DNA from: an uncultured Chloroflexia bacterium
GTDB taxonomy: Bacteria; Chloroflexota; Limnocylindria; Limnocylindrales; CSP1-4
Assembly: GCA_963712745.1 (NCBI GenBank)
Contig: CAVQJC010000014.1
Location: 1 to 64,000 of the forward strand
DNA: 64,000 nt
Direction: 5' to 3'
A program made the translations under genes and the position numbers. The notes under the pieces were generated by a model, which was given only the letters and a program-made list of their open reading frames with translations, ran no database searches and was not told the DNA's origin. This document shows positions 11,814-56,669 of the stretch, piece after piece. Every line of letters starts with the position of its first letter. The stretch's first letter is position 1.

Positions 11814-11816
11814 GTC

Positions 11817-13869: not shown

Positions 13870-13922
13870 CCGACACCCGATACCCGACAGACCGAGCCAT
13901 CCAACGACGAAAGGAAACCGAC

Positions 13923-38000: not shown

Positions 38001-38034
38001 GCGGATGGCTGACCCGCGGGCGCATACTCGCGGC

Positions 38035-38853: not shown

Positions 38854-38873
38854 CCAGACCAGGAGGGAGTTCC

Positions 38874-39224: not shown

Positions 39225-39227
39225 TCG

Positions 39228-39629
39228 CTAGACCAGCGACCGGGTGGCGATGTTGGCCACGCCGATGTGGCGATGCCTTGGCCCGTCTAGCTCCAGGAAG
39301 ATGATCCGCTGCCAGGTGCCAACGTCCAGGCGGCCCTCGCTGACCGGCAGCAGCAGCTGGCCGCCGATGAAGCTGGCGAGGACGTGCGACTGGGCGTTGC
39401 CCGGGTTCCAGACCTCGTGCTGCCAGGGCCCGTGGTCCTCGATGAGATGGGCCGCCACGCGCTCATAGTCGGCGAACATCTCCGAGCCTGACTCACCCAG
39501 GAAGACCGCGGCCGTGGTGTGCTCGACGGTGACCAGCAGGAGGCCGTCGGGCCAGTCGCGGGAAGTGAAGAGATGGGTGATGTCGAGCGCCTGCGTGCGC
39601 CGGCTGGTCGAGAGTTCGAAGCGAAGCAT
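39228..39629 (-). CDS. yjbQ: YjbQ/UPF0047 family protein
   Basis: HTTAAV, NAQSHV, GTWQRIIFLELDGPR. Confidence 0.88.
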   Translation of the reverse strand: MLRFELSTSRRTQALDITHLFTSRDWPDGLLLVTVEHTTAAVFLGESGSEMFADYERVAAHLIEDHGPWQHEVWNPGNAQSHVLASFIGGQLLLPVSEGRLDVGTWQRIIFLELDGPRHRHIGVANIATRSLV

Positions 39630-39658
39630 CCCCTGAGGCTACTCGCCCCCGGCAGTCG

Positions 39659-40714: not shown

Positions 40715-40816
40715 GGGTGCTCCGTTGTCGATGCTGAGGTCTTCGGGGCCTGCTCGTACGGTAGCATCGCTGCGGCGCGGTTCTCGTCGCGGGTCACGTC
40801 CAGCGGGAGGAAGAAG

Positions 40817-41797
40817 TTGAGGCTCGGCACACTTCGTGGCCTGGACGCCTGTGCCTCCGAGAGGGGCACGTTCTCGATCCTGGCGCTCGATCATCGCAAC
40901 AACCTGCGCCGGATGCTGGACCCGGACGACCCTGAGTCGGTCAGCTACGAGCAGATGGTCGCGGTCAAGCGCTCGATCGTGCGCGCCATCGCTCCGGTCG
41001 CCGACGGCATCCTGCTCGACCCGGACCTGGGCGCGGGCCCCGCGATCCACGACGGTTCGCTGCCTTCGGGCTGCGGACTGCTCGTAGCCGTCGAAGAGAG
41101 TGGGTACGACGGGCCGCCTACCGCGAGGCGCAGCCGCATCATGAAGGATTGGGGCGTGTCGCAGATCAAGCGACTCGGGGCCGACGCGGTGAAGCTACTG
41201 CTCTACTACCACCCCGATGCGCCCAACGCCGAGGACCAGGAACGCCTGCTCATCGAGATAGCCGAGTACTGCGCCGATTCGGACATCCCGCTCTTTCTCG
41301 AGACGCTGGGCTACTCCATCGAGGAGGGCGCGGCCGGGCTGACCGATGACGCTCGCCGCGATGTCGTGGTGCGCACCGCCAGGCGCTTGACAGCGCTCGG
41401 CGGGGACGTGCTCAAGTGCGAGTTCCCGTACGACGCCTCGGTCACCGACCGCAGCCGCTGGAAGGAGGCCTGCGCCGAGCTCGAGGCGGCCTCGTCTATC
41501 CCCTGGGCCATCCTCTCGGCCGGCGTGGACGATGCCACCTTCGAGGCCCAGACCGAGGTCGCCTGTGCTGCTGGTGCGTCGGGGGTGCTGGTGGGCCGGT
41601 CGGTCTGGAAGGAAGCGGCCACGATGGCCGCGCCCGAGCGCGACCGCTGGCTGGAGACCGTGGGCGCGGCGCGCATGCAGCGCCTCGTCGATATCGTCGA
41701 GGCGGAGGCTCGGCCGTGGCGAGAGCGCTCGCCGCTGCTCGACCAGCCGGAGCCGGGCGAGGGCTGGTACGCAAGCTACCCGGGGTCGTTGGCGTGA
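40817..41797 (+). CDS. lacD: Tagatose-1,6-bisphosphate aldolase (LacD/class I family)
   Basis: LALDHRNNL, ILLDP, EESGY, AVKLLLYYHPD, VLKCEFP, LSAGV, GRSVW. Confidence 0.85.
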   Translation: MRLGTLRGLDACASERGTFSILALDHRNNLRRMLDPDDPESVSYEQMVAVKRSIVRAIAPVADGILLDPDLGAGPAIHDGSLPSGCGLLVAVEESGYDGPPTARRSRIMKDWGVSQIKRLGADAVKLLLYYHPDAPNAEDQERLLIEIAEYCADSDIPLFLETLGYSIEEGAAGLTDDARRDVVVRTARRLTALGGDVLKCEFPYDASVTDRSRWKEACAELEAASSIPWAILSAGVDDATFEAQTEVACAAGASGVLVGRSVWKEAATMAAPERDRWLETVGAARMQRLVDIVEAEARPWRERSPLLDQPEPGEGWYASYPGSLA

Positions 41798-42807
41798 GTG
41801 GTGCACCGGAGCTCGATAGCGAGTCAGCTTCCACGCCAGAGGGGGACTCGGCCCCGGAGCGCGAGACAGACGTCTACGTCATCGGCGACGTCAATCCGGA
41901 CATCCTCGTCATCGACAAGGACGTCGTGCCCGAGTTCGGGCAGGTCGAGAAGTACGTCGGGACGATCCGCCTGACCGTGGGGGGCTCGTCGGCCATCACC
42001 GCCTGCGGCCTGGCCCGCCTGGGCCTGCGGGTGGCGCACGGCGGGATCGTGGGGGACGACATCCTCGGCCATGCCATCCTCGAAGCTTTGCGCCAGCGGG
42101 GCGTCGACACCTCCACCGTCTTGGTCGACCCGGCCATCCCCACCGGCGCCACCGTCCACCTGGGCACCGGCGACAACCGCGCCATGCTTACGGCCACCGG
42201 CACCATCGATCGGCTCGCAGCCGAGGACGTGCCGTCCGGGCTCCTGCCGCACATCCGGCACATCCACGCGGGATCGACGGGCATCCAGCCGAAGCTGCGG
42301 CCAGGTCTTCCGGCCCTGTTCGACAAGGCCCGGGCAGCCGGTGTGACCACGTCCTTCGACTCGAACTGGGATCCCGACCGGCGCTGGGAGGGCATCGATC
42401 CGATGCTGGCGGCGACTGACATCTTCTTCCCCAACGAACGGGAAGCCAGGCTCATCAGCGGCGAGTCGGACCCGCTGGAGGCGGCCCATGCGCTGGTGGC
42501 ACGGGCCGAGGCTGCCGGACGAGATGACTCCGCGGAGCCGCTGACGGTAGTCGTCAAGATGGGTGCCCAGGGGGCATTGGCCGTGCGTGGCGACCACGCG
42601 CTGCGGCTGCCGGCCGACAAGGTCAAGGTCGTGGACTCGACCGGTGCCGGCGACAGCTTCGACGCCGGGTTCCTCTATGGCTTCCTCGATGGACGTCCGC
42701 TGGCCGAATCGCTGGCCCTGGCGGTCGCCTGCGGCACGCTCTCGACCCGCGCGGTAGGTGGCGTCGACGGCCAGGCCACGCTGGAGGAGGCCACGGGTCT
42801 GCTGTAG
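41794..42807 (+). CDS. PfkB-family carbohydrate kinase
   Basis: GGSSAITACGLARLG, VGDD, PNERE, DSTGAGDSFDAG. Confidence 0.92.
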   Translation: MSGAPELDSESASTPEGDSAPERETDVYVIGDVNPDILVIDKDVVPEFGQVEKYVGTIRLTVGGSSAITACGLARLGLRVAHGGIVGDDILGHAILEALRQRGVDTSTVLVDPAIPTGATVHLGTGDNRAMLTATGTIDRLAAEDVPSGLLPHIRHIHAGSTGIQPKLRPGLPALFDKARAAGVTTSFDSNWDPDRRWEGIDPMLAATDIFFPNEREARLISGESDPLEAAHALVARAEAAGRDDSAEPLTVVVKMGAQGALAVRGDHALRLPADKVKVVDSTGAGDSFDAGFLYGFLDGRPLAESLALAVACGTLSTRAVGGVDGQATLEEATGLL

Positions 42808-42835
42808 GCGGGCGGGGCGCGCAGCAGCCTGGGGG

Positions 42836-43891
42836 TTAGCCCTCTTCGCGTTCGATCTGGCGACGTGAGGCCGGGGTGCGCCTGGACGTGGGAACGTCGG
42901 AGGCACCCTCGACGAAGGACGCTTCGCGCGCCCACGCTGCGGCCTGCTCCTGCTGCTCCACCGAGAGGATGCCGTGGCGTGCCAGTGAGGCCATCTCGTC
43001 GCGGATGTAGGTGTTGAGCATCTCCGGACCGTCGGTGTTGATGGTGTAGCGCACGCCGTTCTTGGCGAAGGTCTCGAAGATCCACACGAACTCGTCCCAG
43101 CCGGAGACCACTCGCGAGTTGAGGTTGCTGGTCGGGCACAGTTCCAAGGTGATGCCGCGCTCGCGGATCATGTCCATGGTCTTCTGGTCATACGCCGACT
43201 TCACGCCGTGACCCAGCCGGTCGGGCTCGAGGTGCTTGATGACCTGGGCCACCTCCTTGACCGGGCCTGACTCGCCGGTGTGAACGGTGATGCCCAGGCC
43301 CTTCTTGCGTGCCTGCCGAAATGCAGCCTTGTAGTCGGCCGGGTCGAAGGTCGAGGACTCCGGGCCGGCGATGTCGATACCCACCACGCCGCGGTCCCGG
43401 TAGGCGATGGCTTTCTCCACGATGATCTCGTTGAGATGCCTCGGGAAGGCGCGGTCCAGGCAGAGGATCAGTCCCGGCTTGATGGGGTACTCGAGAGTGG
43501 CCCGGTCCATGCCCCGGATGGCGGCGCTGATGATGTGGTCGAGATCCTGCTCGCCTCCCCGGTTGCGCTTCATGGGGTTGAAGCGCAACTCCATGGTCGT
43601 GACGTGGTTCTTGCGGTAGGCGCCGCCGATGACCTCGTAGACCGAGCGCTCCACGGCCAGCGGCGAGGACTGGATGAGCTCGGTCCAGTGGAACAGCTGC
43701 AGATAGCCGTCGAACGATCGGCCGCGCCGCTTGGACACGGTGATCATCTCGCGAAACTCCCAGTAATCCTTGCTCGGCAGGCGGATGCCCTGGGAGTGGG
43801 CGATGCCCCACATGATCGCGGGCGACACGGCACCACCGAGATGACAGTGGAGCTCAGCGAGGGGGATCTTGCGGGAGAGGACAGAGGCCAT
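42836..43891 (-). CDS. Adenosine deaminase family protein
   Basis: AELHCHLGG, ELRFNP, GIDIAG, VHTGE, RLGHG, CPTSN, NTDGP. Confidence 0.9.
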   Translation of the reverse strand: MASVLSRKIPLAELHCHLGGAVSPAIMWGIAHSQGIRLPSKDYWEFREMITVSKRRGRSFDGYLQLFHWTELIQSSPLAVERSVYEVIGGAYRKNHVTTMELRFNPMKRNRGGEQDLDHIISAAIRGMDRATLEYPIKPGLILCLDRAFPRHLNEIIVEKAIAYRDRGVVGIDIAGPESSTFDPADYKAAFRQARKKGLGITVHTGESGPVKEVAQVIKHLEPDRLGHGVKSAYDQKTMDMIRERGITLELCPTSNLNSRVVSGWDEFVWIFETFAKNGVRYTINTDGPEMLNTYIRDEMASLARHGILSVEQQEQAAAWAREASFVEGASDVPTSRRTPASRRQIEREEG

Positions 43892-43929
43892 GCGGCGATG
43901 CTACCGCGTGGCCTGGTCCCCGCGACGGC

Positions 43930-44355
43930 TCAGGCAGGCAGCGACACGGGCTGGGTCAAACGGATGTGGTTGCCGGAGGGGTCGCGGAAGCCGGCATCGA
44001 TGCCGTAGAACCGCTCTTCAGGGGGCTCGATGAACTCAACGCCAAGAGTGATCAACCGCTCGTAGTCGGACTTGATGTCGTCGGTCGTGAGGAAGATCCC
44101 GTTGGCCTGTCCCTTGCCCACGATGTCGCGGACCTGCTCCACGGTCGCCGCGTCGGGAATGGGTGGGCTGGCCATGGCCATGAGCACGATCGAGACGTCT
44201 GGCTGCCCGGCCGGACCGACCGCCAGCCAACGGAAGTCGCCCATCTCCGGGACCGTCACATCGGACCGAACTTCCAGGCCGACCTTGTCGACGTAGAAGC
44301 TCAGGGCCTCGTCCTGGTCGTGCACCCAGAGTTGGGCACTGGCGAGCTTGATCAT
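43930..44355 (-). CDS. VOC/glyoxalase family protein
   Basis: VHDQDEALSFY, FRWLAV, YGIDAGFRDPSGN. Confidence 0.9.
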   Translation of the reverse strand: MIKLASAQLWVHDQDEALSFYVDKVGLEVRSDVTVPEMGDFRWLAVGPAGQPDVSIVLMAMASPPIPDAATVEQVRDIVGKGQANGIFLTTDDIKSDYERLITLGVEFIEPPEERFYGIDAGFRDPSGNHIRLTQPVSLPA

Positions 44356-44409
44356 CGTTCCTCCTGTCGGGTAGGTGTCCGGCAGATCGGCCGTTCGACC
44401 CGGAGGAGC

Positions 44410-44847
44410 CTAGCCCGCCGGTGTGGCCCTGTCTTCTCGAAACGTGCGGCTTTGGGGCCGTGCGTGGGCGCGCATCACGCACGCCGGGATCATGGCCATG
44501 CGGCTGGCCGCCGGGTGCGCTGCCCGGTAGCGCAGCGGGGGCATGCCGAACACCCGAGTGAAGCTCGAGGTGAACGATCCGACGCTCTCCCATCCGACGC
44601 TCACGGCGATGCGGGCGACCGCCCAGTCGGTCTTGCGCAGCAGGGCCGCTGCGCGCTCGAGCCGTCGGGTGGTCAGGTAGCGATGCGGTGGTTCTCCGAA
44701 GGTGCGACGGAACTCGCGGCTGAAGTGAGCCTTGGAGAGTCGTGCCTCCCGCGCCAGCTCGGCCACCGTCAGCGGCTCCGCGTAGCGCGAATCGACCATG
44801 TCCCTGGCGCGGAGCAGGTGCCGGCTCGGGGGGAGCTCGCCCGTCAT
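44410..44847 (-). CDS. AraC-family HTH regulator (short)
   Basis: LSKAHFSREFRRTFGEPP, RRLERAAALLR, VGWESVGSFTSSF. Confidence 0.9.
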   Translation of the reverse strand: MTGELPPSRHLLRARDMVDSRYAEPLTVAELAREARLSKAHFSREFRRTFGEPPHRYLTTRRLERAAALLRKTDWAVARIAVSVGWESVGSFTSSFTRVFGMPPLRYRAAHPAASRMAMIPACVMRAHARPQSRTFREDRATPAG

Positions 44848-44981
44848 CACACCAGTATCGGGCAACCGGCGTGGTGCGGGCACCCCGCAAACGTGCATGA
44901 GTCGGCATTGACAGTCGTGCAACGCTGTGGCCGGACGTGGCTCGTCGGCGGCCTCACCGCCGGCAGGAGCAAGTAGGGAAC

Positions 44982-46034
44982 ATGCGCCTCACCGACTACC
45001 GGCCGGTCAGCAGACTGCGCTTGCGCGAGCATCTCATCGAGAAGCCGAAGTTCGGCGTGGTCGACGCCCACAACCACCTGGGGCCGGTCTTCAGCCAAGG
45101 CTGGCACGAGCGGCCCGTTTCGGAGCTCTTGGCCGTGCTCGATGAGGCCGGCGTGGAGACCATCGTCGACCTCGACGGCGGACAGGGCAAATCCTTCAGC
45201 GAGCACCACGCCAGGTACGCGGGCGCGCATCCCGCGCGCTTCGCCCATGTCGCGCAGCTGGCCTACGAGGAGTGGGTCGAGCGGCCCGACTTCGGCGAGA
45301 TGGAGGCCGCGCGCTTCGAGGATTCGGTGCGGCGTGGAGCGGTCGGCATCAAGGCCTGGAAGCCGCTGGGGCTCCGCGCACTTGATCCGGAGGGGAAGCT
45401 CGTGCCCGTGGACGATCCGCGGCTCGATCCCCTGTGGGCGATGGGCGCGAAGACGGGCGCCGTGATCATCGTCCACGTGGCCGACCCGATCGCCTTCTTC
45501 GACCCCCTCGACGAGCACAACGAACGCTGGGAGGAACTGCAGGAGCATCCCGACTGGCACTTCTGGCCGTCGCGGGCCGGGGCCGGCGAGCACGGCTTCC
45601 CTGGCTTCGACGAGATCATCGCAGCCTTCGAGCGGGTGGTGTCACGTCATCCCCAGACGACCTTCATCGGTGCCCACGTGGGCTGTGCCGCGGAGGACCT
45701 GGCGCTGGTCTCGGGGATGCTGGAGCGCAACCCGAACCTCTTCGTGGACATCTCCGCTCGCATCAGCGAGCTGGGCCGCCAGCCCTACTCCGCCCGCGAG
45801 TTCTTCCTCAGGTATGCCGACCGCATCCTCTTCGGGACCGACTTCGGCTACGACCCCGAGATGTACCGCATCTTCTACCGCTTCCTCGAGACCTTCGACG
45901 AGTCATTCGACTACGACCTCGGCGACTACCCTCAGCAGGGCCGCTGGCAGATCCACGGTATCGGCCTGCCCGACGACGTGCTGCGGAAGGTCTACGCGGA
46001 CAACGCCAGGCGCATCCTGCTCAAGGATCGCTGA
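44982..46034 (+). CDS. Amidohydrolase_2 family protein
   Basis: VDAHNH, GIKAWK, VHVADP, IGAH, RILFGTD. Confidence 0.9.
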   Translation: MRLTDYRPVSRLRLREHLIEKPKFGVVDAHNHLGPVFSQGWHERPVSELLAVLDEAGVETIVDLDGGQGKSFSEHHARYAGAHPARFAHVAQLAYEEWVERPDFGEMEAARFEDSVRRGAVGIKAWKPLGLRALDPEGKLVPVDDPRLDPLWAMGAKTGAVIIVHVADPIAFFDPLDEHNERWEELQEHPDWHFWPSRAGAGEHGFPGFDEIIAAFERVVSRHPQTTFIGAHVGCAAEDLALVSGMLERNPNLFVDISARISELGRQPYSAREFFLRYADRILFGTDFGYDPEMYRIFYRFLETFDESFDYDLGDYPQQGRWQIHGIGLPDDVLRKVYADNARRILLKDR

Positions 46035-46129
46035 GGGGACGCGCCGCGCGGGCACCGCGACGGACGTGCGTTCGGCCCCGCGGAGGACTAAGGTCTCGAC
46101 TTTCGAACCAGCAGGCGGAGTGAGGAAGC

Positions 46130-46756
46130 GTGCGTGACGTCGGGCGGCTGTCGTTGGCGCTCGGAGTGGTGGCTCTGGCCACCATCGTCGGCCTGGCCGG
46201 ACTGGCCCAGCTGAAGTTCAGCGCGTTCCTCTCCGACTCCGTGGGTGAACGGCTCGAGATCGTGGGCAGGACTGCGGCGCAGGATTTCGGCGCGGCCATC
46301 GACCACGGGCTGAGCGTCGCCGAGGTCGCCAACGGCCGCCAGATCCTCGAACGAGCGCGAGGTCACGATCGGTCCATCAGCGGCATCGCCGTCTTCGACC
46401 TCGATGCCGCCATCCTGCACACGGCCGGCGACATCCCGGACGGGGAAATCGACCCCCGGACGCAGGAGGCCTTCCGCGTGGTCGTCCTTGAGGACGCAGT
46501 GGACGCCTGGAGCATCGAGGCGGGGGACCAGATCAGGAGCGGAGTGGTCATCGATGGCAGCTTCGGTCAGCCGGTCGGGGGCGTCGTCGTCCACTATCCC
46601 GTCACCGAGATGCGCGAGCAGGAGGCTTCCATGATGGGCTCGCTCCTCTTCGACGCGGCCTGGATCGGACTGGTCGTTCTCATCGTCGTCGGAATCGTCT
46701 TCGCCGTGCTGCGCAGGCGCGAAGGAGGCGATGACCCCGAGGCTGACCAGGCATGA
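46130..46756 (+). CDS. Two-TM membrane protein with Cache-like extracytoplasmic domain and no output domain
   Basis: TM, ~140-aa loop, TM, short tail; the loop resembles the N-terminal loop of the next gene. Confidence 0.72.
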   Translation: MRDVGRLSLALGVVALATIVGLAGLAQLKFSAFLSDSVGERLEIVGRTAAQDFGAAIDHGLSVAEVANGRQILERARGHDRSISGIAVFDLDAAILHTAGDIPDGEIDPRTQEAFRVVVLEDAVDAWSIEAGDQIRSGVVIDGSFGQPVGGVVVHYPVTEMREQEASMMGSLLFDAAWIGLVVLIVVGIVFAVLRRREGGDDPEADQA

Positions 46757-48543
46757 ACCGCGCTGAGCAGGTCTCGCGCCGCCTCATCGGCATCATCGCC
46801 GGCCTGCTGGTGGTGGCGGCCATCCTCTTCGGAGCGCTCATCATCGAGGACTTCAATCGGGCACTCGAGCCGGAGCTCGAGCGACGTTCGGGGCTCATTG
46901 GGACCACGGTGCACGACGACGTGGAGCGCGCGCTGAACGTAGGCATCCCACTGGAACGGCTGGTTGGCGTGGAGGCCTACGTCGAGACGCTGATGACCGA
47001 CTTTGCTGAGCTCGAGTTCGTGGTCGTCCGCGACGGGGCCGGCACCGTCCTCCACTCGGGCGGCGACGTCTCGGAGGCGGTTCGTGCACAAGACTTCAAG
47101 GTCCCGCTTGAAGGCAGCGCTGAGGATGCCGGTTCGCTCGTCTCGCGCTACCCACTGGCGACCGAGCTCGGGACCGTGGGCGCCATCGATGTGGGCGTGG
47201 ACGGCGGGTTCGTGCGCGTCAGACTCGAGGATCTCGCACTCGATCTCATGGTTATCGTGGTCGTGGCGCTGGTGCTGGCGTACGAGCTGGCGCTTGCCGT
47301 GAGCGAGAGGGTGGCGGGTCGCGGACGGCGCCGCTCGTCGGGCGTGGCCGAGGCCAGGTTGGTCCTCTTCGTCTTCGTGGTCGGGGAGGAGCTGAGCAAG
47401 TCGTTCCTGCCGCAGTTCATCCTTGGCGCCACCGATCCGGGGGCGGCCCTCGACCCGGCGGTGGCGGTGAGCCTGCCGATCGTGGCCTACCTGCTCACTC
47501 TTGGCCTGGCCTCGCCTTTCGCCGGCAAGCTCGCCGGGCGTTACGGCGAACGCACTCTCTTGATGGCTGGCCTGGTGTTCGCGGCGGCAAGCCAGGTAGG
47601 CATGGTGGTCGCGGCGGACCTGCTTCAGATCACGGTGCTACGAGGCCTGACGGGAGTGGGATACGCGATCTCGACCATCGCCTGCCTTGAGTACCTCATC
47701 GAACGACAGCCTCGAGCCGATCGGATCCGTGCCACTGGAGCATTCATAGCCGTCGTGATCGGGGGCACATTCGCCGGGACTGCGCTAGGTGGCATCCTGG
47801 CCGACCGACTTGGATACCGTCCGGTGTTCGCCCTCAGCGCGGTCCTGGTGCTGGCCGCGGGGCTCCTGGCCTGGCGACTGATGTCGGCCGCGAGGACCGG
47901 GAGCCAGGCCGAGGAACCGCAGGCGTTCTCGATACGCGATGTCGCCGGCGTCCTGCACCAGCCAAGGCTGCTGGCACTCATGGCCGGGGTGACCGTGCCC
48001 ATGAACGTGTTGCTGGCCGCGTTCCTGTGGTACCTGGTGCCGTTGACACTGGCCGCGTCCGGCGAGAGCGCCGCAGTCATCGGCCGGACGCTGATGCTCT
48101 ACTACCTGGCCGTGTTGCTCGCGGCACCCGCGGTCGGCCGGTTGACCGCCGCCGGGCTCGACGCCAGGTTGCTGGTCGGCATCGGCTCCGTCATCAGCGG
48201 GGCGGTGCTGCTGATCCCGGCGGGCCAGCTGACGACGCTCGCCGTGTCGGTAGCGGTCGTGATCGTCGGCCTCGGCCACGCGGCGATCCGCGGGCCACAG
48301 CTGGTCCTGGCTATCGAGATCGGCGAGGCTGAACGCGCGGGGCTCGGGCGAGGCGCCACACTAGCGGTGATGCGGACGCTCGAGCGACTTGGAGCTCTGG
48401 TAGGTCTCCTCGTGGCGGCCGTGGTCGCGGCGCGATGGGACCTGCTGGTGGCCATGGCGGCGATCGGCGTGGCCACTGGCGTCGCGGGCGTGGCATACCT
48501 CTCGACCGTGCTTGTCGGAGAACGGGGCACCGCGCGTGTCTAG
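46753..48543 (+). CDS. MFS transporter with N-terminal extracytoplasmic sensor-like domain
   Basis: TM-loop-TM followed by an MFS body (GKLAGRYGER, LRGLTGVG, GGILADRLGYRPVF). Confidence 0.82.
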   Translation: MNRAEQVSRRLIGIIAGLLVVAAILFGALIIEDFNRALEPELERRSGLIGTTVHDDVERALNVGIPLERLVGVEAYVETLMTDFAELEFVVVRDGAGTVLHSGGDVSEAVRAQDFKVPLEGSAEDAGSLVSRYPLATELGTVGAIDVGVDGGFVRVRLEDLALDLMVIVVVALVLAYELALAVSERVAGRGRRRSSGVAEARLVLFVFVVGEELSKSFLPQFILGATDPGAALDPAVAVSLPIVAYLLTLGLASPFAGKLAGRYGERTLLMAGLVFAAASQVGMVVAADLLQITVLRGLTGVGYAISTIACLEYLIERQPRADRIRATGAFIAVVIGGTFAGTALGGILADRLGYRPVFALSAVLVLAAGLLAWRLMSAARTGSQAEEPQAFSIRDVAGVLHQPRLLALMAGVTVPMNVLLAAFLWYLVPLTLAASGESAAVIGRTLMLYYLAVLLAAPAVGRLTAAGLDARLLVGIGSVISGAVLLIPAGQLTTLAVSVAVVIVGLGHAAIRGPQLVLAIEIGEAERAGLGRGATLAVMRTLERLGALVGLLVAAVVAARWDLLVAMAAIGVATGVAGVAYLSTVLVGERGTARV

Positions 48544-49564
48544 GGTTCTGGCGACGGCTGTCACGCTTCTGATCACGCTGGCCGCCATAACGCCGTCGGC
48601 CGTCGACGCGGCGGACGACGACGCGGGCAGCGGACCGTTCGAGGTGGTCATGGTCACCTGGCGTGGCTGCGAGGATGCCTGCGCCGGCTTCTGGGACTAC
48701 CTCGACGCTGTCGGCCTCGACGTCTCCCCGACCATCCTCGACGCGAACCAGGATCGCGACCGACTGCCAGGCCTGGTCGAGCAGATCGACGCCCTGGATC
48801 CCGACCTCGTGGTCACCTGGGGCACGTCGGTGACGCTGGGGATCATCGGCACCGTGGACGGAGAGGAGGGGCCTCGCATTGACGATGTGCCGGCCATCTT
48901 CATGATCGTGGCAGACCCAGTGGGTGCCGGGATCATCTCGGAGACCGGCGTCTCCGGCAGGCCGCTCGTCACCGGCACGCACAATCGTGTGCCCGAGGCC
49001 GTGCAGATGCGTGTGCTGGCGGACTACCTCCCATTCGATCGTATCGGGGTCATCTACAACGACGACGAGCTCAACGCGGTGCTCAAGGCGGAGGAAGTCC
49101 GCCGGGTCGGGGCGGAACAGGGATTCGAGGTGGTTGAGCGCGTGCTAGCCAAGGACAAGGACGGTGTACCGCTGGTCGACGATATCCCGGTTGCCGTGGC
49201 GGAGATCGCCGACGCGGACGTGGACCTCATCTACCTTGGTTCGAGCTCGTTCCTGCTCGACAACGCAGACCTGTACACCTCGTCCGCGCTCGACCAGGGC
49301 CTGCCGCTGGCTACGGCCTACGAGGCCATGGTGCGAGACTCACAGGCCCTCATCGCACTCGGCAGTGCGTACTACAACGTGGGCCAGCTCGCCGGCTTTC
49401 AGGCTGAGCTGATCCTGCGCGAAGACCGGATCCCGGGGGACCTCGAGGTCGTCGGCCTGGACAGGTTCAGCGTGGTCGTGAACTTGGCGACTGCCAGGCA
49501 GCTGGAGCTCTACCCGCCCCTGCTCTTGCTACGATATGCGGACGTCGTCGATTCGAGCCAGTGA
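48536..49564 (+). CDS. ABC-type substrate-binding protein (ABC_sub_bind-like), no cognate permease or ATPase nearby
   Basis: Signal peptide; PDLVVTWGT, VADPVGAGII, VTG, IGVIYNDDELNA, YYNVGQLAG, VNLATARQL. Confidence 0.82.
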   Translation: MSRVLATAVTLLITLAAITPSAVDAADDDAGSGPFEVVMVTWRGCEDACAGFWDYLDAVGLDVSPTILDANQDRDRLPGLVEQIDALDPDLVVTWGTSVTLGIIGTVDGEEGPRIDDVPAIFMIVADPVGAGIISETGVSGRPLVTGTHNRVPEAVQMRVLADYLPFDRIGVIYNDDELNAVLKAEEVRRVGAEQGFEVVERVLAKDKDGVPLVDDIPVAVAEIADADVDLIYLGSSSFLLDNADLYTSSALDQGLPLATAYEAMVRDSQALIALGSAYYNVGQLAGFQAELILREDRIPGDLEVVGLDRFSVVVNLATARQLELYPPLLLLRYADVVDSSQ

Positions 49565-49581
49565 ACGACCCCATCGTTCAC
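49561..49581. terminator. Hairpin at the end of the three-gene module
   Basis: gtgaacga-cccca-tcgttcac. Confidence 0.45.
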
Positions 49582-49690
49582 ATCTGGCCGGTCATTCGAT
49601 TGGACAGCCGTACGATGGGGACGTAGCCTCGGCCTCCGACAGCGACCGGGGGGAGCCGGCCAGCCGTGGCCCACGAAGGAGGAATCCCCG

Positions 49691-50545
49691 ATGTCCGACT
49701 ACGCCAACCCCAACGCACTGGTCAGCCCCGAGTGGGCACAGCAGCACCTGGACGATCCCGGCGTCCGCTTCGTGGAGGTGGACGTCGATACCGAGGCCTA
49801 CAGCCAGGGACATATCCCCGGCGCGGTCGGCTGGAACTGGGAGACGCAGCTCTCGGATCGCGTCCGGCGCGACATCGTCAGTCGCGAGGAGCTCTCCGAG
49901 CTGCTCTCGAACTCGGGTATCGGCCCGGAGACACACATCGTGCTCTACGGCGACAACAACAACTGGTTCGCGGCCTGGGCCTACTGGCAGCTACGACTCC
50001 ACCGCGTGGAACGCGTGAGCCTCATCAACGGAGGCCGGGCCTACTGGCTGGAGAACGACCTGCCGCTGGTCCCCGATGTACCCGACTATGCCCCCACGGG
50101 CATCGAGGTGGCCGAGCCCGACTTTGCCACGCGCGCCTTCCAGCGCGACGTGGCCGACCAACTGGGTGATCCGGACCTGGCCCTGGTCGACGTCCGTTCC
50201 CCGGCCGAGTTCTCGGGCGAGGTGATGGCGCCCCCGGGTATGAGCGAGACGGCGCAGCGAGCGGGGCACATCCCCGGCGCCGAGTCAGCACCATGGGCCC
50301 AGACGGTCAACGAGGACGGCACGTTCAAGTCGGCCGATGAGCTGCGCGCCCACTACGAGGCCAAGGGCGTGACCGCGGACAAGGACGTGGTGGCCTACTG
50401 CCGCATCGGCGAGCGATCGAGCCATACCTGGTTCGTGCTGCACGAGCTGCTCGGCTACGAGCGCGTGCGCAATTACGACGGCTCGTGGACCGAGTGGGGC
50501 TCGCTCATCGGCGCACCCATCGAGAATCCGAGCGCTGGGGGCTAG
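49691..50545 (+). CDS. Thiosulfate sulfurtransferase (tandem rhodanese)
   Basis: GHIPGAV, LYGDNNNWFAA, DVRSPAEF, YCRIGERS, NYDGSWTEW. Confidence 0.94.
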   Translation: MSDYANPNALVSPEWAQQHLDDPGVRFVEVDVDTEAYSQGHIPGAVGWNWETQLSDRVRRDIVSREELSELLSNSGIGPETHIVLYGDNNNWFAAWAYWQLRLHRVERVSLINGGRAYWLENDLPLVPDVPDYAPTGIEVAEPDFATRAFQRDVADQLGDPDLALVDVRSPAEFSGEVMAPPGMSETAQRAGHIPGAESAPWAQTVNEDGTFKSADELRAHYEAKGVTADKDVVAYCRIGERSSHTWFVLHELLGYERVRNYDGSWTEWGSLIGAPIENPSAGG

Positions 50546-50551
50546 GACAGG

Positions 50552-51079
50552 CTAGGACGCGCCGACCTGGTCAGGGTCCAGGCAGAAGGTGAACATGCGC
50601 TCCGCCTCGATGCGCGCGTAGGCCACGCCCGGGTCGTCGAAGATGGCCGAGGCGGAGTCGCCGAAGCGGGCCCCGTAGTAGTCGAGCAGCACCTGGCGGA
50701 AGCCTCCGTCGTCATGCGACCTGGGGTCGATCTCGACGGCGCGACCGTGGGTCGTGACGCTGAGCGCTTCCGCCGGCAGGTAGGTGGCACTGACCGCGGG
50801 ACGCCGTCGGATGTGACGGAAGCGCAGTGACGCATCGCTCGAGCCGAAGTACCACTCACCCCGGTAGAAGAAGCCGTCCACCGGGCCGGTGATGGGCCGC
50901 CCGTCGGAAGTGACCGTGGCCAGCGTCAGCAGGCACATACCCTGGAGTCGATCGGCCAGCTGGCCGGCGGTCAGCCGGCGCTCGGGCGTGATGACCTCGC
51001 GGAGGTGCGACCCGGCCGACTCGTAGCTGGAGTCGAGCGTGGCCTGGAGCCGCGCCAGGTCCTCGGTCGTCTCGTGCAT
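50552..51079 (-). CDS. Pyridoxamine 5'-phosphate oxidase-like FMN/F420-binding protein
   Basis: LATVTSDGRP, RFRHIRRRPAVSAT, VTTHGRA. Confidence 0.82.
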   Translation of the reverse strand: MHETTEDLARLQATLDSSYESAGSHLREVITPERRLTAGQLADRLQGMCLLTLATVTSDGRPITGPVDGFFYRGEWYFGSSDASLRFRHIRRRPAVSATYLPAEALSVTTHGRAVEIDPRSHDDGGFRQVLLDYYGARFGDSASAIFDDPGVAYARIEAERMFTFCLDPDQVGAS

Positions 51080-51102
51080 CGGCCGGCGGCTGTCTGGTGC
51101 GA

Positions 51103-52167
51103 CTAGCCGCCGATAGCCAGGCCGTTGGCCGCCAGCGCGGCGGCACGGGAGCTACGGTTGCGCTTGGCCTCCTCGGGCACCTGGTCGCGGGCGTGGTAGG
51201 ACGAGCGCACGAGCGGTCCCGACTCGACATGCTTGAAGCCGAGCGCCAGGCCTTCCGCCTTCATCTCGACGAACTCATCAGGATGGACGTAACGCTCCAC
51301 CGGCAGGTGGTTGGGGGTGGGGCGCAGGTACTGGCCGAGGGTGAGGATGTCGCAGTCGACCGCGCGCAGGTCGCGGAACGTCTGGCTCAGTTCCTCGCGC
51401 GTCTCACCCAGGCCGACCATGATGCTCGACTTGGTGTGCACGGTCCCGGGCCGGCCGGCGAACTCGAGAGCCATGGCCTTGGCGTCGGCGAGGACTCGCA
51501 GCGAGCGGTCGTACCGGGCCCGCTTGCGCACCGGCTTCTGCAGCCGTTCCACGGTCTCGACGTTGTGGTTGAGGATGTCCGGCGCCGCCTCCATGACCGT
51601 GCGCAGGTCGGCGTCGAGGTAGTCGGGGATGAGCACCTCCACGCCCATGGCCGGACTGCAGCGGCGCATCTCGCGGATGGTCTCGGCGAAGATGCGGGCA
51701 CCGCCGTCATCAAGGTCGTCGCGGCAGACGCTGGTGACCACCACGTGCTCGAGGCCCATGACCGCGACCGCTTCGGCCACTCGACGCGGTTCGTCGTCGT
51801 CATCCCAACTCGGCCGGCCGGTCTTGACCGCACAGAATCCGCAGGCGCGGGTGCACGTGTCGCCGAGGATCATGACCGTGGCCGTACGCTCCTCCCAGCA
51901 CTCGCCGATGTTGGGGCACATGGCCTCCTCACAGACGGTGTTGAGCGTCTGGCCCTTGACCAGGCCCTTGAGCTCGTTGTAGTTGGCACCGGTCGGCAGC
52001 TTGGCCTTGATCCACTCGGGATGGCGCTTGCGATCGGGGCCGGTTCGAGCCGCGGTGGCGTCGACCGAGCCGCCCATGGCGATGGTCAGCGGCTGACCGA
52101 TCTCGGGCGAGCCGTGGCTGTGACAGCCCCCGCTGCCGTTGCTGAAGATCGGGAGTTCCTTGGCCAT
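51103..52167 (-). CDS. lipA: Lipoyl synthase
   Basis: [38 protein letters not shown]. Confidence 0.97.
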
Positions 52168-52170
52168 GTC

Positions 52171-53712
52171 CTACCAGATGGGGGTGTTCTGGTCGACCGC
52201 ACCGAGCCAGGCTGCGACGTCCTGCAGGAAGGCACCCGCCTGGGCACCGTCGGTGGCCCGGTGATCGATGGCGATGCACATGTTCATCATCGAGCGGACA
52301 GCGATGGCGTCGCCCTGGTCCTCCAGCACGACCGGCCGCTTCACGATCTTCTCCATGGTGATGATGGCGACCTCGGGCACGTTGATGATCGGCAGCGTCA
52401 GGATAGAGCCGGTCCAGCCGGTGTTGTCGACGGTGAAGGTGCCGCCCTCGAGATCCTCCGGCCGAAGCTTCTTGTTGCGGGCCCGCTTGGCCAGGTCGTT
52501 GATGGCGGCGTTGAGGCCGTGGAGGCTGAGGTCCTGCGCATTCTTGATGACCGGCACCACGAGACCGTCGTCGACGGCTACGGCGATGCCGATGTTGATG
52601 GCCTTTCGACGCCAGTGCCCTTCTTCGGTCCAGTGGGCGTTGAAGTCGGGGAAGCGGCGCAGGGCCTCGACACAGGCCTTGGTCATGTAGGCCACGTAGC
52701 TCATCGACATGCCTTCGCGCGACTTGTAGTCGGCATTGACGGCAGCGCGGGCCTTGACCACCGGGGTCATGTCGACCTCGATGGTGATGTAGGCAGCCGG
52801 CACTTCGACGAAGCGCTGCATGTGCCTGGCGATGGCCTTGCGCATGGGCGTGAGCTGCTTGAGCGAGTCGCCGTGCTTGACGGGGGAGTCGGTGGGGTCG
52901 GCAGCGGGCGGGGCGGGTGCCAGGGCTGGCGCGGGTGTCAGGGCTGGTGCGGATGCCAGGGCTGGTGCAGGTGCCAGGGCTGGCGCGGGTGCCAGGGCTG
53001 GCGCAGGTGCCAGGGCTGGCGCGGGTGCCAGGGCTGGTGCCCCCGAAGCGGGGGCCGGACCGGAGCCGTTGGTCGCGCCGGCCGAAGCTGCCTCGACGTC
53101 AGCGCGGGTGATGCGGCCGCCCATGCCCGAGCCGGCGATGGCGGTGACGTCCACCCTCAGCTCGCGTGCCAGGCGACGCACGGCCGGGGTCATACGCATG
53201 TTGGTGGGGACGACGACAGGGGCCGCTGGGGCGGCGGTGGCCGGTGCCGTGGTCGGCATGGGGGTCGCGGGGGCCTGGGTCGCTGGTGCCTGGGCCGCAG
53301 GTGCGGGGGTCGGCTGTGCCTGGGTCGCTGGTGCCTGGGCCGCAGGTGCCTGGGCCGCAGGTGCGGGCGGCGGCGGCTCGGCTCCAACGGCCGTAGCGCC
53401 GGCCGCCTCGCCCGACGTGCCCGGGGCCGCCGCCGCATCTGCCGGTTCGGCTGACGCTCCCGGAGCGGCCGTCGCGCCGGCCGCGTCCACCTCGGCGATG
53501 GGCGCATCGTTGCCCACGGTGTCGCCCTCGGAGACGAGGATCTTGGTGAGGGTGCCCTCGAACGGTGAAGGGACCTCGGCGTTGACCTTGTCGGTCACGA
53601 CTTCGACCAGTGGGTCGCCCACGCGAACGGGGTCGCCGACGGCCTTGAGCCACTTCCCGATGGTGCCCTCTTCGACGCCTTCACCGAGCTGGGGCATGGT
53701 CACCTGGGGCAT
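52171..53712 (-). CDS. 2-oxoacid dehydrogenase E2 (dihydrolipoamide acyltransferase)
   Basis: Lipoyl domain TDKV, E3-binding TPAVRRLA...GRITRAD, catalytic DHRATDG. Confidence 0.95.
   Translation of the reverse strand: MPQVTMPQLGEGVEEGTIGKWLKAVGDPVRVGDPLVEVVTDKVNAEVPSPFEGTLTKILVSEGDTVGNDAPIAEVDAAGATAAPGASAEPADAAAAPGTSGEAAGATAVGAEPPPPAPAAQAPAAQAPATQAQPTPAPAAQAPATQAPATPMPTTAPATAAPAAPVVVPTNMRMTPAVRRLARELRVDVTAIAGSGMGGRITRADVEAASAGATNGSGPAPASGAPALAPAPALAPAPALAPAPALAPAPALASAPALTPAPALAPAPPAADPTDSPVKHGDSLKQLTPMRKAIARHMQRFVEVPAAYITIEVDMTPVVKARAAVNADYKSREGMSMSYVAYMTKACVEALRRFPDFNAHWTEEGHWRRKAINIGIAVAVDDGLVVPVIKNAQDLSLHGLNAAINDLAKRARNKKLRPEDLEGGTFTVDNTGWTGSILTLPIINVPEVAIITMEKIVKRPVVLEDQGDAIAVRSMMNMCIAIDHRATDGAQAGAFLQDVAAWLGAVDQNTPIW
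52916..53041. repeat. Coding 18-bp tandem repeat (~7x APALAP) in the E2 linker
   Basis: ggtgccagggctggcgcg-like units. Confidence 0.85.
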
Positions 53713-53796
53713 GAGTCGACTCCTGGGAATTCCGTTCGCTGGACTGGGATGGGCACTACTCGAGTCAAGGACTCCATGATAGCGACCCCTCCGATT

Positions 53797-53817
53797 CGGA
53801 CCCTGATACAGGGTCCG
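53797..53817. promoter_or_regulatory. Perfect palindrome upstream of the HTH-nuclease gene
   Basis: cggaccctg-ata-cagggtccg. Confidence 0.6.
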
Positions 53818-53867
53818 TGAAGTGCCGGGTAACGGCGTGTGAAGCGAGCATCGGCACCATCGGCGCC

Positions 53868-54596
53868 ATGGACGACGTACGCATCGGCAATACCCTCCGC
53901 GTCATCCGCATCCGCAAGCACCTGCGCCAGTGCGACGTCGCCCGCCGCGCCGGCGTTTCGCGCCAGGTCGTCGGCCGACTCGAGAACGGATACGCGGGCC
54001 GATACACGCTCGACACCATCCGCTCGATCGCGAACGCCCTCGGCGCTCGCTACGACGGACGGCTGCACTACCGGGGCGCCGAGCTCGATCGTATCGTCAA
54101 CGCCGCCCACGCCGAGCTCCACGAGTCGGTCGCTGCACACCTCGAACGCCTGGATGGCTGGACATGGCTGCCCGAGGTGACCTTCGCCCACTACGGCGAA
54201 CGCGGCATCATCGACATCCTCGCCTGGCATGCGGAGACGCGTAGCCTCCTCATCATCGAGTTGAAGACCGAGCTGGTCGACCCCCAGGGTCTGGTAGCGG
54301 TGATGCATCGTCGTGTTCGCCTCGGTCGCACGGTCGCGCGACAGCACGGCTGGGATCCCTCCTCGGTGAGCGCGTGGGTCATCATCCGCGACACCGCCAC
54401 CGAGCGGCGCCGTGCGAAGAGGCACGCACAGCTGCTTCGCAAGGCGTTCCCGCACGAGGGTAGGACCGCGCGTGCATGGCTATCGCACCCACGCGGCCGA
54501 CTCAGCGCTCTGTCCTTCTGGTCAGATGTCACGCCGGGTGGCGCTAGCAAGGTGCCCGTGCGCACTCAGCGCGTCCGGGTTGCTCATCGGCCCTAG
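53868..54596 (+). CDS. XRE-HTH protein fused to a PD-(D/E)XK nuclease-like domain
   Basis: LRQCDVARRAGVSRQVVGRLENG HTH; PEVTF...GIIDILAW...LLIIELKT (E...D...ExK). Confidence 0.8.
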   Translation: MDDVRIGNTLRVIRIRKHLRQCDVARRAGVSRQVVGRLENGYAGRYTLDTIRSIANALGARYDGRLHYRGAELDRIVNAAHAELHESVAAHLERLDGWTWLPEVTFAHYGERGIIDILAWHAETRSLLIIELKTELVDPQGLVAVMHRRVRLGRTVARQHGWDPSSVSAWVIIRDTATERRRAKRHAQLLRKAFPHEGRTARAWLSHPRGRLSALSFWSDVTPGGASKVPVRTQRVRVAHRP

Positions 54597-54709
54597 ACCC
54601 CGCAGGAGCCAAGCGTGACCGGACATGTCGGAGATCGCTGTTGACGTGCCCTGGCCGACGGGGCGGCCGACCATCTGGCTAGGGCCACCGAGGATGACAT
54701 CTGACTAGA
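54517..54709. other. Long imperfect inverted repeat overlapping the 3' end of the HTH-nuclease gene
   Basis: 54517-54531 pairs with 54695-54709 (14/15) and 54537-54548 with 54678-54689 (11/12), colinear. Confidence 0.7.
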
Positions 54710-54730
54710 TGGCGGCGAGGCCGCCAGCGC

Positions 54731-54830
54731 GGGCCTGTCGCCAGCGGCCGAGGCCTGTCGCCAGCGGCCGAGGCCTGTCGCCAGCGGCCGAGGCCTGTCG
54801 CCAGCGGCCGAGGCCTGTCGCCAGCGGCCG
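54731..54830. repeat. 20-bp tandem repeat x5
   Basis: (a/g)ggcctgtcgccagcggccg x5. Confidence 0.93.
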
Positions 54831-54858
54831 CGCGCAGCCGCGCCCCACGGCCGCGGAG

Positions 54859-56292
54859 CTAGAAGTTGATGGACTTGCCGTCGACGGCCATGGCCGCCTC
54901 GCCCATCGTCTCGGAGAGCGTGGGGTGCGGGTGGACGGCAGAGCCGACCTCCCAGGCGGTGGCCTCGAGCAGCATAGCCGTGGAGGACTCGGCGATGAGC
55001 TCGGTGACCTGATGGCCGATCATGTGCACGCCCAGCAGCTCGTCGGTCTCGGCGTCGGCGATGACCTTGACGAAACCGGTGGTGTCGCCCTCGATGATGG
55101 CCTTGCCCGACGCCATCATCGGCATCTTGCCGACCTTGGTCTTGAGGCCGCGCTCCGCGCACTGCTCGGAGGTGAGGCCGATCGAGGCCACCTGCGGCCG
55201 CGAGTACGTCGCTCGCGGCATCTTCACGTAGTCGATCTCCTCGACCTCGAGCCCGGCGATGGCGTGCACCGCGGCGATGCCCTCGTGCGTGGCCACGTGC
55301 GCGAGCCACAATCCGCCGGCGATGTCGCCCACGGCATACAAGTGCGGGTCGGCGGTGCGCATCTCCGCGTCGGTCTGGACGATGCCGCGGTCCACCACCG
55401 CACGCGTCGTCTCGAGACCGATGTCCTCGACATTGGCAGCTCGACCTGTGGCAACCAGCATCTGCTCGGCACGCAGCTCGGCCGGCTCGGCGCCCTCGGG
55501 GCCAACCATCAGCGACACGCCCGAGTCGTCTGCCTTGACCGCTCCCGTGTCGAAGCGCGCCGAGGTGATGACCTTGATGCCGCGCTTCTTGAAGGCGCGC
55601 GCCATCTCCCTCTGGATCTCACCGTCTTCGAGCGGCACCAAGCCCGGCAGATACTCGAGCACGGTGACCTCGGCACCCATGTCGTGGTAGTAGGAGGCGA
55701 ACTCGACACCCACCGCACCGGCGCCCACGACGATGATCGACTCGGGCATATGCGAGGAGCGGAGCACGTCGTCGGACGTAACGATGCGCTCGCCATCCGG
55801 CACCAGCCCCGGCAGCGATTTGACCCGCGAGCCGGTGGCCACGATCACGTCCGTGGCCTTGAGGATGGTCTCGCCGGTCGACTTGCCCTCGCTGTCGGTC
55901 GTCTTCACCCGGACCTGCTGCGGGCCTTCGAGCCGGCCGCGGCCGACGATGTACTCGACCTTGTTCTTCTTGGCCAGACTGGTCACGCCCTTCACCAGGC
56001 GCGAGACGATCCGGTCGCGCCGCTTGGCGATGGCCTCAGGGTCGGCCGATACGTCGGCGGCCGAGATGCCGAACTCGGTCGAGTGCTTCATGTGGTCGAG
56101 CAAGTCGGCCGAAGCGAGCATGGCCTTGGTCGGGATACAGCCGATGTGCAGGCAGGTGCCTCCGAGGCCCATGGGGTTGTCGTCCACGAGGGCGACCTTG
56201 AGCCCCAGCTGGCCGGCGCGGAACGCGGCGCCGTAGCCGCCGGTGCCGCCGCCGAGGACGACGATGTCGAAGGACTGGGTTTCGTTGGGCAC
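54859..56292 (-). CDS. lpdA: Dihydrolipoamide dehydrogenase
   Basis: GGGTGG, GGTCLHIGCIPTK, ATGS, GAGAVGVE, YAVGD, HPHPTLSE. Confidence 0.97.
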   Translation of the reverse strand: MPNETQSFDIVVLGGGTGGYGAAFRAGQLGLKVALVDDNPMGLGGTCLHIGCIPTKAMLASADLLDHMKHSTEFGISAADVSADPEAIAKRRDRIVSRLVKGVTSLAKKNKVEYIVGRGRLEGPQQVRVKTTDSEGKSTGETILKATDVIVATGSRVKSLPGLVPDGERIVTSDDVLRSSHMPESIIVVGAGAVGVEFASYYHDMGAEVTVLEYLPGLVPLEDGEIQREMARAFKKRGIKVITSARFDTGAVKADDSGVSLMVGPEGAEPAELRAEQMLVATGRAANVEDIGLETTRAVVDRGIVQTDAEMRTADPHLYAVGDIAGGLWLAHVATHEGIAAVHAIAGLEVEEIDYVKMPRATYSRPQVASIGLTSEQCAERGLKTKVGKMPMMASGKAIIEGDTTGFVKVIADAETDELLGVHMIGHQVTELIAESSTAMLLEATAWEVGSAVHPHPTLSETMGEAAMAVDGKSINF

Positions 56293-56340
56293 GGTGGACC
56301 TCGGAAGAACGTGATTCGGACGGGTGCGATGGTAGCAAAG

Positions 56341-56637: not shown

Positions 56638-56669
56638 CACCCAAATCGGCCGACCTATACTCGCCCCGC

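Follow-up and report, generated by a model that had tools for sequence, protein, structure and literature searches.

In the LuxP–LuxQ system, a binding protein docks on the PAS/Cache-type ectodomains of a membrane sensor, and TorT–TorS, ChvE–VirA, NspS–MbaA and AgtS/AruS are likewise activated by binding proteins. To our knowledge, the usual account has carriers of the major facilitator superfamily (MFS) working unaided, and assigns binding proteins to ABC, TRAP and TTT carriers or to sensor kinases. The Q and M subunits of TRAP carriers are sometimes fused. According to an excerpt of PMC11113362, many of the kinases which are activated by a solute-binding protein are encoded beside its sbp gene. 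Here we describe three overlapping genes which lie on the forward strand of a stretch of 64,000 nucleotides from an uncultured Chloroflexia bacterium (assembly GCA_963712745.1, contig CAVQJC010000014.1, positions 1 to 64,000; hereafter the window) and occupy positions 46130..49564. Gene 1 encodes a small membrane protein with an extracytoplasmic sensor domain, gene 2 an MFS permease with a related sensor module at its N-terminus, and gene 3 a secreted binding protein. We read this trio, with a confidence slightly short of even, as a binding-protein-controlled (ligand-gated) MFS permease with a sensor pair formed by genes 1 and 2. With such a cassette, a secondary carrier would be regulated from outside the cell in a novel manner, or transport that depends on a binding protein would gain a new class.

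Based on the comparison with described systems, the trio shares different traits with each of them. Like LuxP–LuxQ, it places the gene of a periplasmic binding protein beside that of a membrane sensor and has two PDC folds (in tandem in LuxQ, one per paralogous chain in the trio). Unlike LuxP–LuxQ, it has an MFS carrier behind the sensor and not a kinase, cyclase or chemoreceptor, its binding protein belongs to PF04392, and its docking is a prediction. With the TRAP (DctPQM) and TTT (TctCBA) carriers it has in common a binding protein, a small membrane protein and a large secondary carrier, fusions of the small and the large component, and the lack of an ATPase. However, the carrier has the MFS fold and not that of DctM/TctA, the small subunit is a bitopic Cache protein and not a four-helix bundle, the binding protein is not of the DctP/TctC type, and most members contain a HAMP-like linker; the only family matches of the trio proteins are PF04392 and MFS_1. 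DctM and TctC are found only among unrelated neighbours of a few loci. The DHA1 antiporters (MdfA, NorA, SotB) and VMAT are the best structural matches of gene 2 and share with it an acidic residue in transmembrane helix (TM) 1 and an arginine in TM4, but gene 2 has about 190 extra N-terminal residues (the sensor module) and is accompanied by a partner protein of its own and by a binding protein. In the ammonium receptor Sd-Amt1 and the SLC5/STAC kinases CbrA and CrbS, a carrier fold and a signalling module are joined in one chain via HAMP or STAC (excerpts of PMC11152129 and PMC9100948). Gene 2 resembles them in combining both in one chain with a signal-converter linker; those proteins use the carrier for input and a cyclase or kinase for output, whereas in gene 2 the order is reversed, with an N-terminal Cache sensor and the carrier in the output position. 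All components of the trio are of known kinds (MFS, Cache/PDC, HAMP, PF04392), while their combination appears to match no family with which it was compared: ABC, TRAP and TTT systems all differ from it, and a transmitter domain is lacking. A Cache/HAMP–MFS fusion with a binding protein was not found described in the full-text literature searched.

Concerning gene 1, the protein is bitopic and consists of TM1, an extracytoplasmic single-Cache/PDC domain and TM2; it has no significant match to a Pfam family. Its AlphaFold2 (AF2) model (predicted local distance difference test, pLDDT, 91.9) contains helices at residues 2–57 and 69–78, five strands and a helix at residues 159–199. A long N-terminal helix followed by a five-stranded sheet with short helices, placed between two membrane helices, is the hallmark of Cache/PDC domains. 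The best Foldseek matches are the sensor domains of WalK/YycG, KinD, CitA and DcuS (E 4.6e-7 to 3e-4), and the Foldseek probability is 1.00 against those of WalK, KinD, CitA, DcuS and Tlp3. As modelled, the loop of gene 1 is a single-Cache/PDC fold. These matches agree with the original prediction, made from the letters of the window, which had invoked Cache-type sensor domains; its statement that gene 1 has no cytoplasmic output domain also holds, as the modelled protein ends about 15 residues past TM2. The Pfam Cache matches in relatives are sub-threshold (dCache_1: 6e-4, 19.8 bits against a cut-off of 45; sCache_3_2: 4e-4).

The N-terminal part of gene 2 is built in the same way. In the AF2 models the order of elements is common to both modules: a very long helix, a short helix, two strands, a helix, three strands and a long exit helix; the fourth element, the helix between the strand groups, is short in the gene 2 module. 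The original prediction held that the two loops align by eye. At the level of the single pair the evidence for this is weak, the BLASTP alignment being marginal (24% identity over 119 residues, E 0.018 in a single comparison), but it is strong when the families are compared: with 72 gene-1 relatives in one profile and 64 gene-2 relatives in the other, hhalign gave a probability of 98.3% and E 2.1e-14 over 197 columns, which cover TM1, the loop and TM2. Judged from these profiles, the sensor modules formed by gene 1 and by the N-terminal part of gene 2 are clearly paralogous. In a wide alignment of the gene 1 family, G60 is invariant and K29, L59, G93 and G138 are nearly so.

Relatives of gene 1 are numerous. 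Thirty close ones stand alone and are about 205 amino acids (aa) long. A gene-1 profile searched against 1.84 billion representatives matched 2615 clusters at E<=1e-3, 1320 at E<=1e-10 and 356 at E<=1e-30; by the second of these counts, and by the gene-1 profile alone, the cassette is not rare. Among the 150 best relatives, 22 are at least 690 aa long and all 22 contain MFS_1, while 8 (393–546 aa) are apparently cut pieces. The 30 longer relatives scanned contained no kinase, cyclase or chemoreceptor domain at E<=1e-5. The output of a classical sensor (kinase, GGDEF or MCP) is also lacking in the trio of the window, where gene 1 ends after TM2 and the output part of gene 2 is the MFS. Proteobacterial gene 1 proteins (e.g. 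L040:7075-7962 and L047:7113-7952) differ from that of the window in having a helical cytoplasmic tail of 70–90 residues past TM2; a pairing of this tail, which is not HAMP by Pfam, with the HAMP-like linker of gene 2 is conceivable.

Concerning the carrier part of gene 2, MFS_1 (PF07690) matches residues 205–533 (E 5e-28, 98.4 bits against a cut-off of 33.4), and the AF2 model (pLDDT 88.2, predicted template modelling score 0.84) has 12 helices after residue 196; on the model, gene 2 contains a complete 12-helix MFS. The nearest solved folds in Foldseek are MdfA, NorA, VMAT1/2 and SotB, with TM-scores to the target of 0.77–0.84. In NCBIfam, all matches to efflux-type MFS families are sub-threshold (best 51 bits against a cut-off of 131). 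The alignment of the gene 2 family contains G-x-x-x-G-T-x-x-G-G, which we take to be a motif C-like sequence, and the TM4 arginine. Five charged residues (E213, K216, R297, R445 and H509) are invariant in 64 gene-2 sequences; the invariant acidic and lysine residues of TM1 and the arginine of TM4 presumably occupy the positions of the MdfA coupling residues. Because the charged intramembrane residues are invariant across these sequences, the carrier looks functional.

The region between sensor and carrier differs among the members. Most proteobacterial members have a HAMP-like linker there, and the family alignment shows the consensus PL...L...A.GDF...LN...L at this position. By Pfam, HAMP (PF00672) is found in P0016 and P0017 (E 7e-7), L066 (8e-4) and P0145 (5e-7). 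Gene 2 of the window has no Pfam match to HAMP; its linker is short and, in the alignment, lacks about 90 residues which are present at this place in P0015 and P0016. Residues 1–200 of gene 2, used in a word-indexed search, gave 15 proteins including the query. The 14 relatives comprise five of 590–603 aa with the same architecture, six of about 800 aa in which, according to the alignment, gene 1 is fused in front of gene 2, and three of 691–744 aa with an extra cytoplasmic linker, in two of which Pfam detects HAMP. One of these records, P0017 (744 aa), runs from a gene-1-like part into a gene-2-like part through an arginine-rich junction and ends in a scrambled C-terminal part; a frameshift or a mis-called record is a more probable explanation than a natural fusion.

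Gene 3 belongs to PF04392 (ABC_sub_bind; E 2e-20, 73.6 bits against a cut-off of 25.9). Its nearest solved structures are 6hni, 3lkv and 3lft (profile E 3e-20 to 3e-24), which are TrpX-type members of the same Pfam family. Unlike them, gene 3 has its own W-R-G-C-E-x-A-C and G-S-S-S sequences and no ABC partner. TrpX itself was ruled out as an identity for gene 3, as the score against the TrpX equivalog NF041285 (65.4 bits) lies far under its cut-off of 390. The solved ligands of the PF04392 family are L-Trp, L-Tyr and L-Phe (excerpt of PMC10443332). The nearest solved proteins thus hold aromatic amino acids, but the subfamily of gene 3 has its own CxxxC motif and differing loops. The trio-linked binding proteins match that of the window with phmmer E-values of 1e-73 to 1e-125, except four fragments or contig-end copies; because these values are far stronger than the family-level Pfam match, they form a dedicated subfamily. 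In the ESM Atlas the protein matches generic PF04392 clusters only. Gene 3 has a cleavable type I signal peptide and no lipobox, as do all sampled members of the subfamily, the actinobacterial-type ones included. The motif W-R-G-C-E-D-A-C lies at 48659–48682 of the window (residues 50–57 of gene 3, numbered from the TTG start); in the form W-R-G-C-E-x-A-C, its residues C53, C57, R51, G52 and E54 do not vary among 54 binding proteins of the subfamily. It could be a disulfide, metal or ligand site. The metal-binding reading is speculation; in 4 loci a gene for cation efflux is found close to the trio. The HMMER alignments to 6hni and 3lkv begin past the motif, which leaves it outside the comparison. 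The subfamily has G-S-S-S where 6hni and 3lkv have P-T-D-N and I-D-N-T.

The conservation of the trio was surveyed in one genome per species by means of MFS-family patterns; 86 relatives were confirmed among 289 pattern matches and the best 80 were taken. Gene 1 lies directly upstream of gene 2 in 65 of the 80 loci and is fused to it in a further 6, and the binding protein gene lies directly downstream in 75, so the co-conservation that the original prediction had proposed to look for is present. The nine loci without an adjacent or fused gene 1 are accounted for by contig ends (L051, L054 and L067), a frameshift (L065), run-over of the open reading frame (ORF) call (L070, L079 and L089) and order variants (L057 and L087). 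Similarly, the five loci without a downstream binding protein are three contig ends and the two order variants, which have it on the other side. L057 (1058-5195) has the order gene 1, binding protein, MFS, and L087 (3399-9251) has gene 1, MFS and binding protein followed by a second, divergent MFS copy; both form long branches in the MFS tree described below. The five best loci come from metagenome-assembled genomes (MAGs) with 47–53% identity, three labelled Acidimicrobiia/Acidimicrobiaceae and two ‘uncultured bacterium’. The other 75 loci (31–41% identity) come from α-, β- and γ-proteobacteria and from MAGs of Deltaproteobacteria/Desulfobacterales. In practically all loci with enough contig to judge, order and orientation are kept, across Actinomycetota-type MAGs, α-, β- and γ-proteobacteria and Thermodesulfobacteriota.

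The window and its five nearest loci (L014–L018) have the trio alone in common, and not the flanks. An ortholog of gene 2 was absent from 40 relatives of the genome, in which only generic MFS matches were obtained (E 2e-12 or weaker), and 300 other sampled genomes of the same class gave no match to gene 1 at E<=1e-5. Within the class the cassette is, as sampled, sporadic. Since the trio is all that the nearest loci share and was found neither in the 40 relatives nor in the 300 genomes, the cassette moves as a self-contained unit.

Neighbouring ORFs of the 80 loci were clustered and named by Pfam. No kinase, phosphatase or ABC core, which might have explained the binding protein, recurs across the loci, and none adjoins the window's clade: 5 loci, each of Rhizobiaceae type, have a SpoIIE phosphatase cluster, 6 have protein-kinase fragments, and 6 have an ABC ATPase (ABC_tran) cluster, which is mostly non-adjacent and stands directly after the trio only in L061 and L087. 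In the window, no ABC permease, ABC ATPase or protein kinase was found among the ORFs scanned at 38005–57338, as had been predicted, so that the genes which would make gene 3 part of an ABC importer are lacking there. These results support the trio as a functional unit, with the gene order pointing to a conserved cassette rather than a truncated ABC cluster. Chance neighbourhood or the remnant of an ABC importer, with an orphan binding protein and a degraded fragment as gene 1, is very improbable: PF04392 is, in its family description, normally part of ABC importers and the flanks in the window are unrelated metabolic genes, but order and orientation persist across distant phyla, the overlaps of the genes suggest translational coupling, gene 1 folds with high confidence and the few ABC ATPase genes mostly do not adjoin the trio.

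As part of the best explanation of these results, we infer that the trio works as one extracytoplasmic-to-membrane device. Genes 1 and 2 would form a heterodimer, by which the carrier would bear a Cache pair on its outer face. The ligand-loaded binding protein would dock on this pair in the manner of LuxP, which binds the tandem PAS folds of LuxQ, and docking would shift the sensor helices and switch the attached MFS, an H+-coupled permease, on or off. The original prediction, of a binding-protein-dependent or ligand-gated MFS with a heterodimeric docking site, is thus partly supported; the HAMP-like linker of most relatives and the embedding of one subclade in type VI secretion clusters go beyond it. 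In most proteobacterial relatives the signal would pass through the four-helix linker, which is HAMP-like. This linker is absent from the window's clade, where any coupling would therefore be direct, with the sensor helix leading almost immediately into MFS helix 1. The chains of genes 1 and 2 are likely to associate, because they are fused in many lineages, which is a classical indicator of physical association. The binding protein most plausibly docks on the Cache pair, because it is always encoded with genes 1 and 2 and has no anchor of its own; a cleavable signal peptide without a lipid anchor would fit retention on a partner. Also in favour are that no second PF04392 protein was found in the genome and that an ABC core is lacking nearby. 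The HAMP-like converter between sensor and carrier suggests gating rather than simple hand-over of the solute, since its position implies that the state of the outer domain is passed to the carrier.

Several points weigh against a gated permease of this kind. The exporter-like fold leaves the direction of transport unfixed, and a binding protein would be a more natural partner of an importer. HAMP is undetected by Pfam in five of six unfused proteobacterial gene-2 proteins examined (L039, L041, L033, L084 and L047) and in P0015; moreover, the protein of the window has no such linker, so the HAMP argument does not apply directly to it. From the few invariant residues of gene 1, little can be concluded for or against a pocket. 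As the survey started from the MFS part, members of the binding-protein subfamily that occur without the carrier would lie outside it. The ORFs of the loci come from a simple script, with the gene-1 hidden Markov model and the binding protein of the window as queries, and the neighbour counts are approximate. The interaction within the trio is a prediction from the sequences. A complex prediction with gene 1, residues 1–200 of gene 2 and the mature binding protein carries no weight for or against binding, as a control with gene 1 replaced scored the same.

Less probable than the gated permease, and on balance unlikely, is a tripartite importer in which the binding protein hands its solute to the carrier and gene 1 and the ectodomain of gene 2 are a docking platform only. 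The gene content fits it well, with a binding protein, a small membrane protein, a large 12-helix carrier and occasional fusions of small and large component, and the P, Q and M domains of TRAP offer a parallel as they are described in an excerpt of PMC9352664. The binding protein co-occurs wherever this is observable, there is no other output and no ABC core, and gene 3 is the only PF04392 protein found in this genome. Simple hand-over, however, gives no obvious role to the HAMP-like converter of most relatives, the carrier fold is nearest to DHA1 antiporters and exporters, and a binding-protein-dependent MFS was not found in the literature searched. The boldest reading, which we consider doubtful to the same degree, is that the trio founds a third class of binding-protein-dependent secondary transporters (‘tripartite MFS’), with PF04392 delivery via heterodimeric Cache ectodomains, and that one lineage has recruited it into type VI secretion (T6SS) clusters. 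If this were true, its use there could be, for example, the uptake of the contents of killed neighbours or the timing of firing.

Unexpectedly, type VI genes do recur beside the trio in one part of the family. Over the 80 loci, the recurrent genes are those of VgrG (38 loci), TssA directly after the binding protein (37), Hcp (27), TssB (27), DUF6931 (26) and TssC (23), and TssE, TssF and PAAR are also found. At least two type VI genes accompany the trio in 38 of the 80 loci; for the 50 loci that extend 6 kb or more on both sides, the number is 30. The trio is flanked by vgrG/DUF6931 and tssA-hcp-tssBC in Rhodobacterales, stands in front of vgrG in Vibrionaceae and is divergent from vgrG in Oceanospirillaceae. 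In a quick maximum-likelihood tree of the MFS family (64 rows, LG+G4, with a long-branch warning), one clade with an SH-aLRT support of 97 contains 31 rows, of which 28 are T6SS-linked and which come from Vibrionaceae, Oceanospirillaceae and Rhodobacterales. The protein of the window falls in a separate well-supported group of 14 rows, an actinobacterial-type clade, none of which is T6SS-linked. VipB was not found in the genome of the window (4.2 Mb, 20 contigs, 84.55% complete), and the flanks at 38005–57338 contain no T6SS genes. Because the 14-row clade is unlinked and VipB was not found, the T6SS link is a property of one subfamily and not of the window's cassette. The T6SS-embedded subclade shows the trio in use as a plug-in module, and there the trio looks like an unrecognised T6SS accessory module; an excerpt of PMC5371669 mentions trio-type genes as flanking DNA or junction of the VflT6SS1 cluster. 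This subclade offers an experimentally accessible phenotype in culturable marine bacteria.

The T6SS link bears on a third alternative, that the MFS part is a non-transporting receptor or scaffold (a transceptor) which passes the state of binding protein and Cache domains to other proteins, the T6SS being the target in one subclade. The concentration of type VI genes in that subclade, the position of the trio between vgrG and tssA in Rhodobacterales and the sensor-type domains in front of the MFS speak for such a signalling device. We nevertheless judge it improbable, and more so than the importer: the window's clade has no type VI link and metabolic flanks, the invariant intramembrane charges are as expected of a working H+-coupled carrier, and a cassette which moves alone should have a self-contained function.

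Other neighbourhoods were seen in smaller groups of loci. In five Rhodospirillaceae-type loci (L029, L040, L045, L047 and L055; about 11100–14100) a second binding protein (NMT1_3) and a secretin-domain protein come after the trio, and in all of these but L040 a pentapeptide-repeat protein does so too. In five Rhizobiaceae-type loci (L028, L033, L036, L049 and L056) it is followed by a protein of about 700 aa without a Pfam match and a SpoIIE/PP2C phosphatase; most of them have TPR protein, vgrG, Tox-PAAR-like and pentapeptide genes before the trio.

The coordinates of the trio, of its closest neighbours in the window and of the T6SS-linked loci are presented in Table 1. The three overlapping genes which had been predicted were recovered as ORFs with codon-position GC of the coding type (GC3 0.84–0.85, GC2 0.41–0.47; the window has a GC content of about 68%). 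The stop of gene 1 and the ATG of gene 2 overlap by 4 bases. Genes 2 and 3 overlap by 32 bases if gene 3 starts at TTG 48512, as listed, and by 8 bases if it starts at GTG 48536; the latter is the likelier start, because it yields a normal signal peptide (MSRVLATAV...VDA/AD).

Table 1. Positions of the trio genes, their parts and the adjoining genes in the window, and the T6SS-linked loci of the survey
Feature	Positions	Strand	Description
Gene 1	46130..46756	+	208 aa; GTG start after a GGAG/GAGGAAG stretch
Gene 2	46753..48543	+	596 aa; sensor module and MFS
Gene 2 sensor module, residues 1-190	46753..47322	+	TM, Cache-like loop, TM; hhalign to the gene 1 family
Gene 2 MFS permease, residues 196-596	47338..48543	+	MFS_1; AF2; Foldseek; DHA1-like fold
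Gene 3	48536 (alternative TTG start 48512)..49564	+	Secreted PF04392 binding protein
Amidohydro_2 gene	44937..46034	+	Pfam E 1e-21; 95 bases before gene 1
AraC-family helix-turn-helix regulator	44410..44922	-	HTH_18 E 1.7e-22; divergent from Amidohydro_2 and the trio
Glyoxalase-family gene	43930..44355	-	Divergent from Amidohydro_2, like the AraC-type regulator
T6SS-linked loci	L022-L027, L030, L037, L039, L041, L044, L046, L048, L050, L052, L058-L060, L062, L072-L077, L081-L085, L088, L090-L093		Trio at ~8000-11100 in most

The flanks of the trio in the window consist of metabolic genes. Upstream are found genes for SIS, a DeoC aldolase, a PfkB sugar kinase, adenosine deaminase, a glyoxalase, an AraC-type regulator and Amidohydro_2, and downstream those for rhodanese, PNPOx, lipoyl synthase and the 2-oxoacid dehydrogenase E2 and E3. 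The Amidohydro_2 gene is possibly co-transcribed with the trio; it is not kept beside the trio at other loci, the nearest five included. The AraC-family gene is, by its position only, a candidate local regulator. Glyoxalase, AraC-type regulator and Amidohydro_2 (43930–46034) may together serve an aromatic or acidic substrate as a local regulon. A guess at aromatic acids as the substrate of the trio, made from these three genes, was given little weight, as the flanks are absent from the five nearest loci. A promoter and terminator scan of 45900–49800 was uninformative: it gave one promoter-like site, which lies within gene 3, and no terminator-like site. At 39659–42807, the longest ORFs of SIS (- strand), DeoC (+) and PfkB (+) overlap one another by hundreds of bases; their Pfam domains start about 130–165 residues into the ORFs, and the real starts are probably well downstream.

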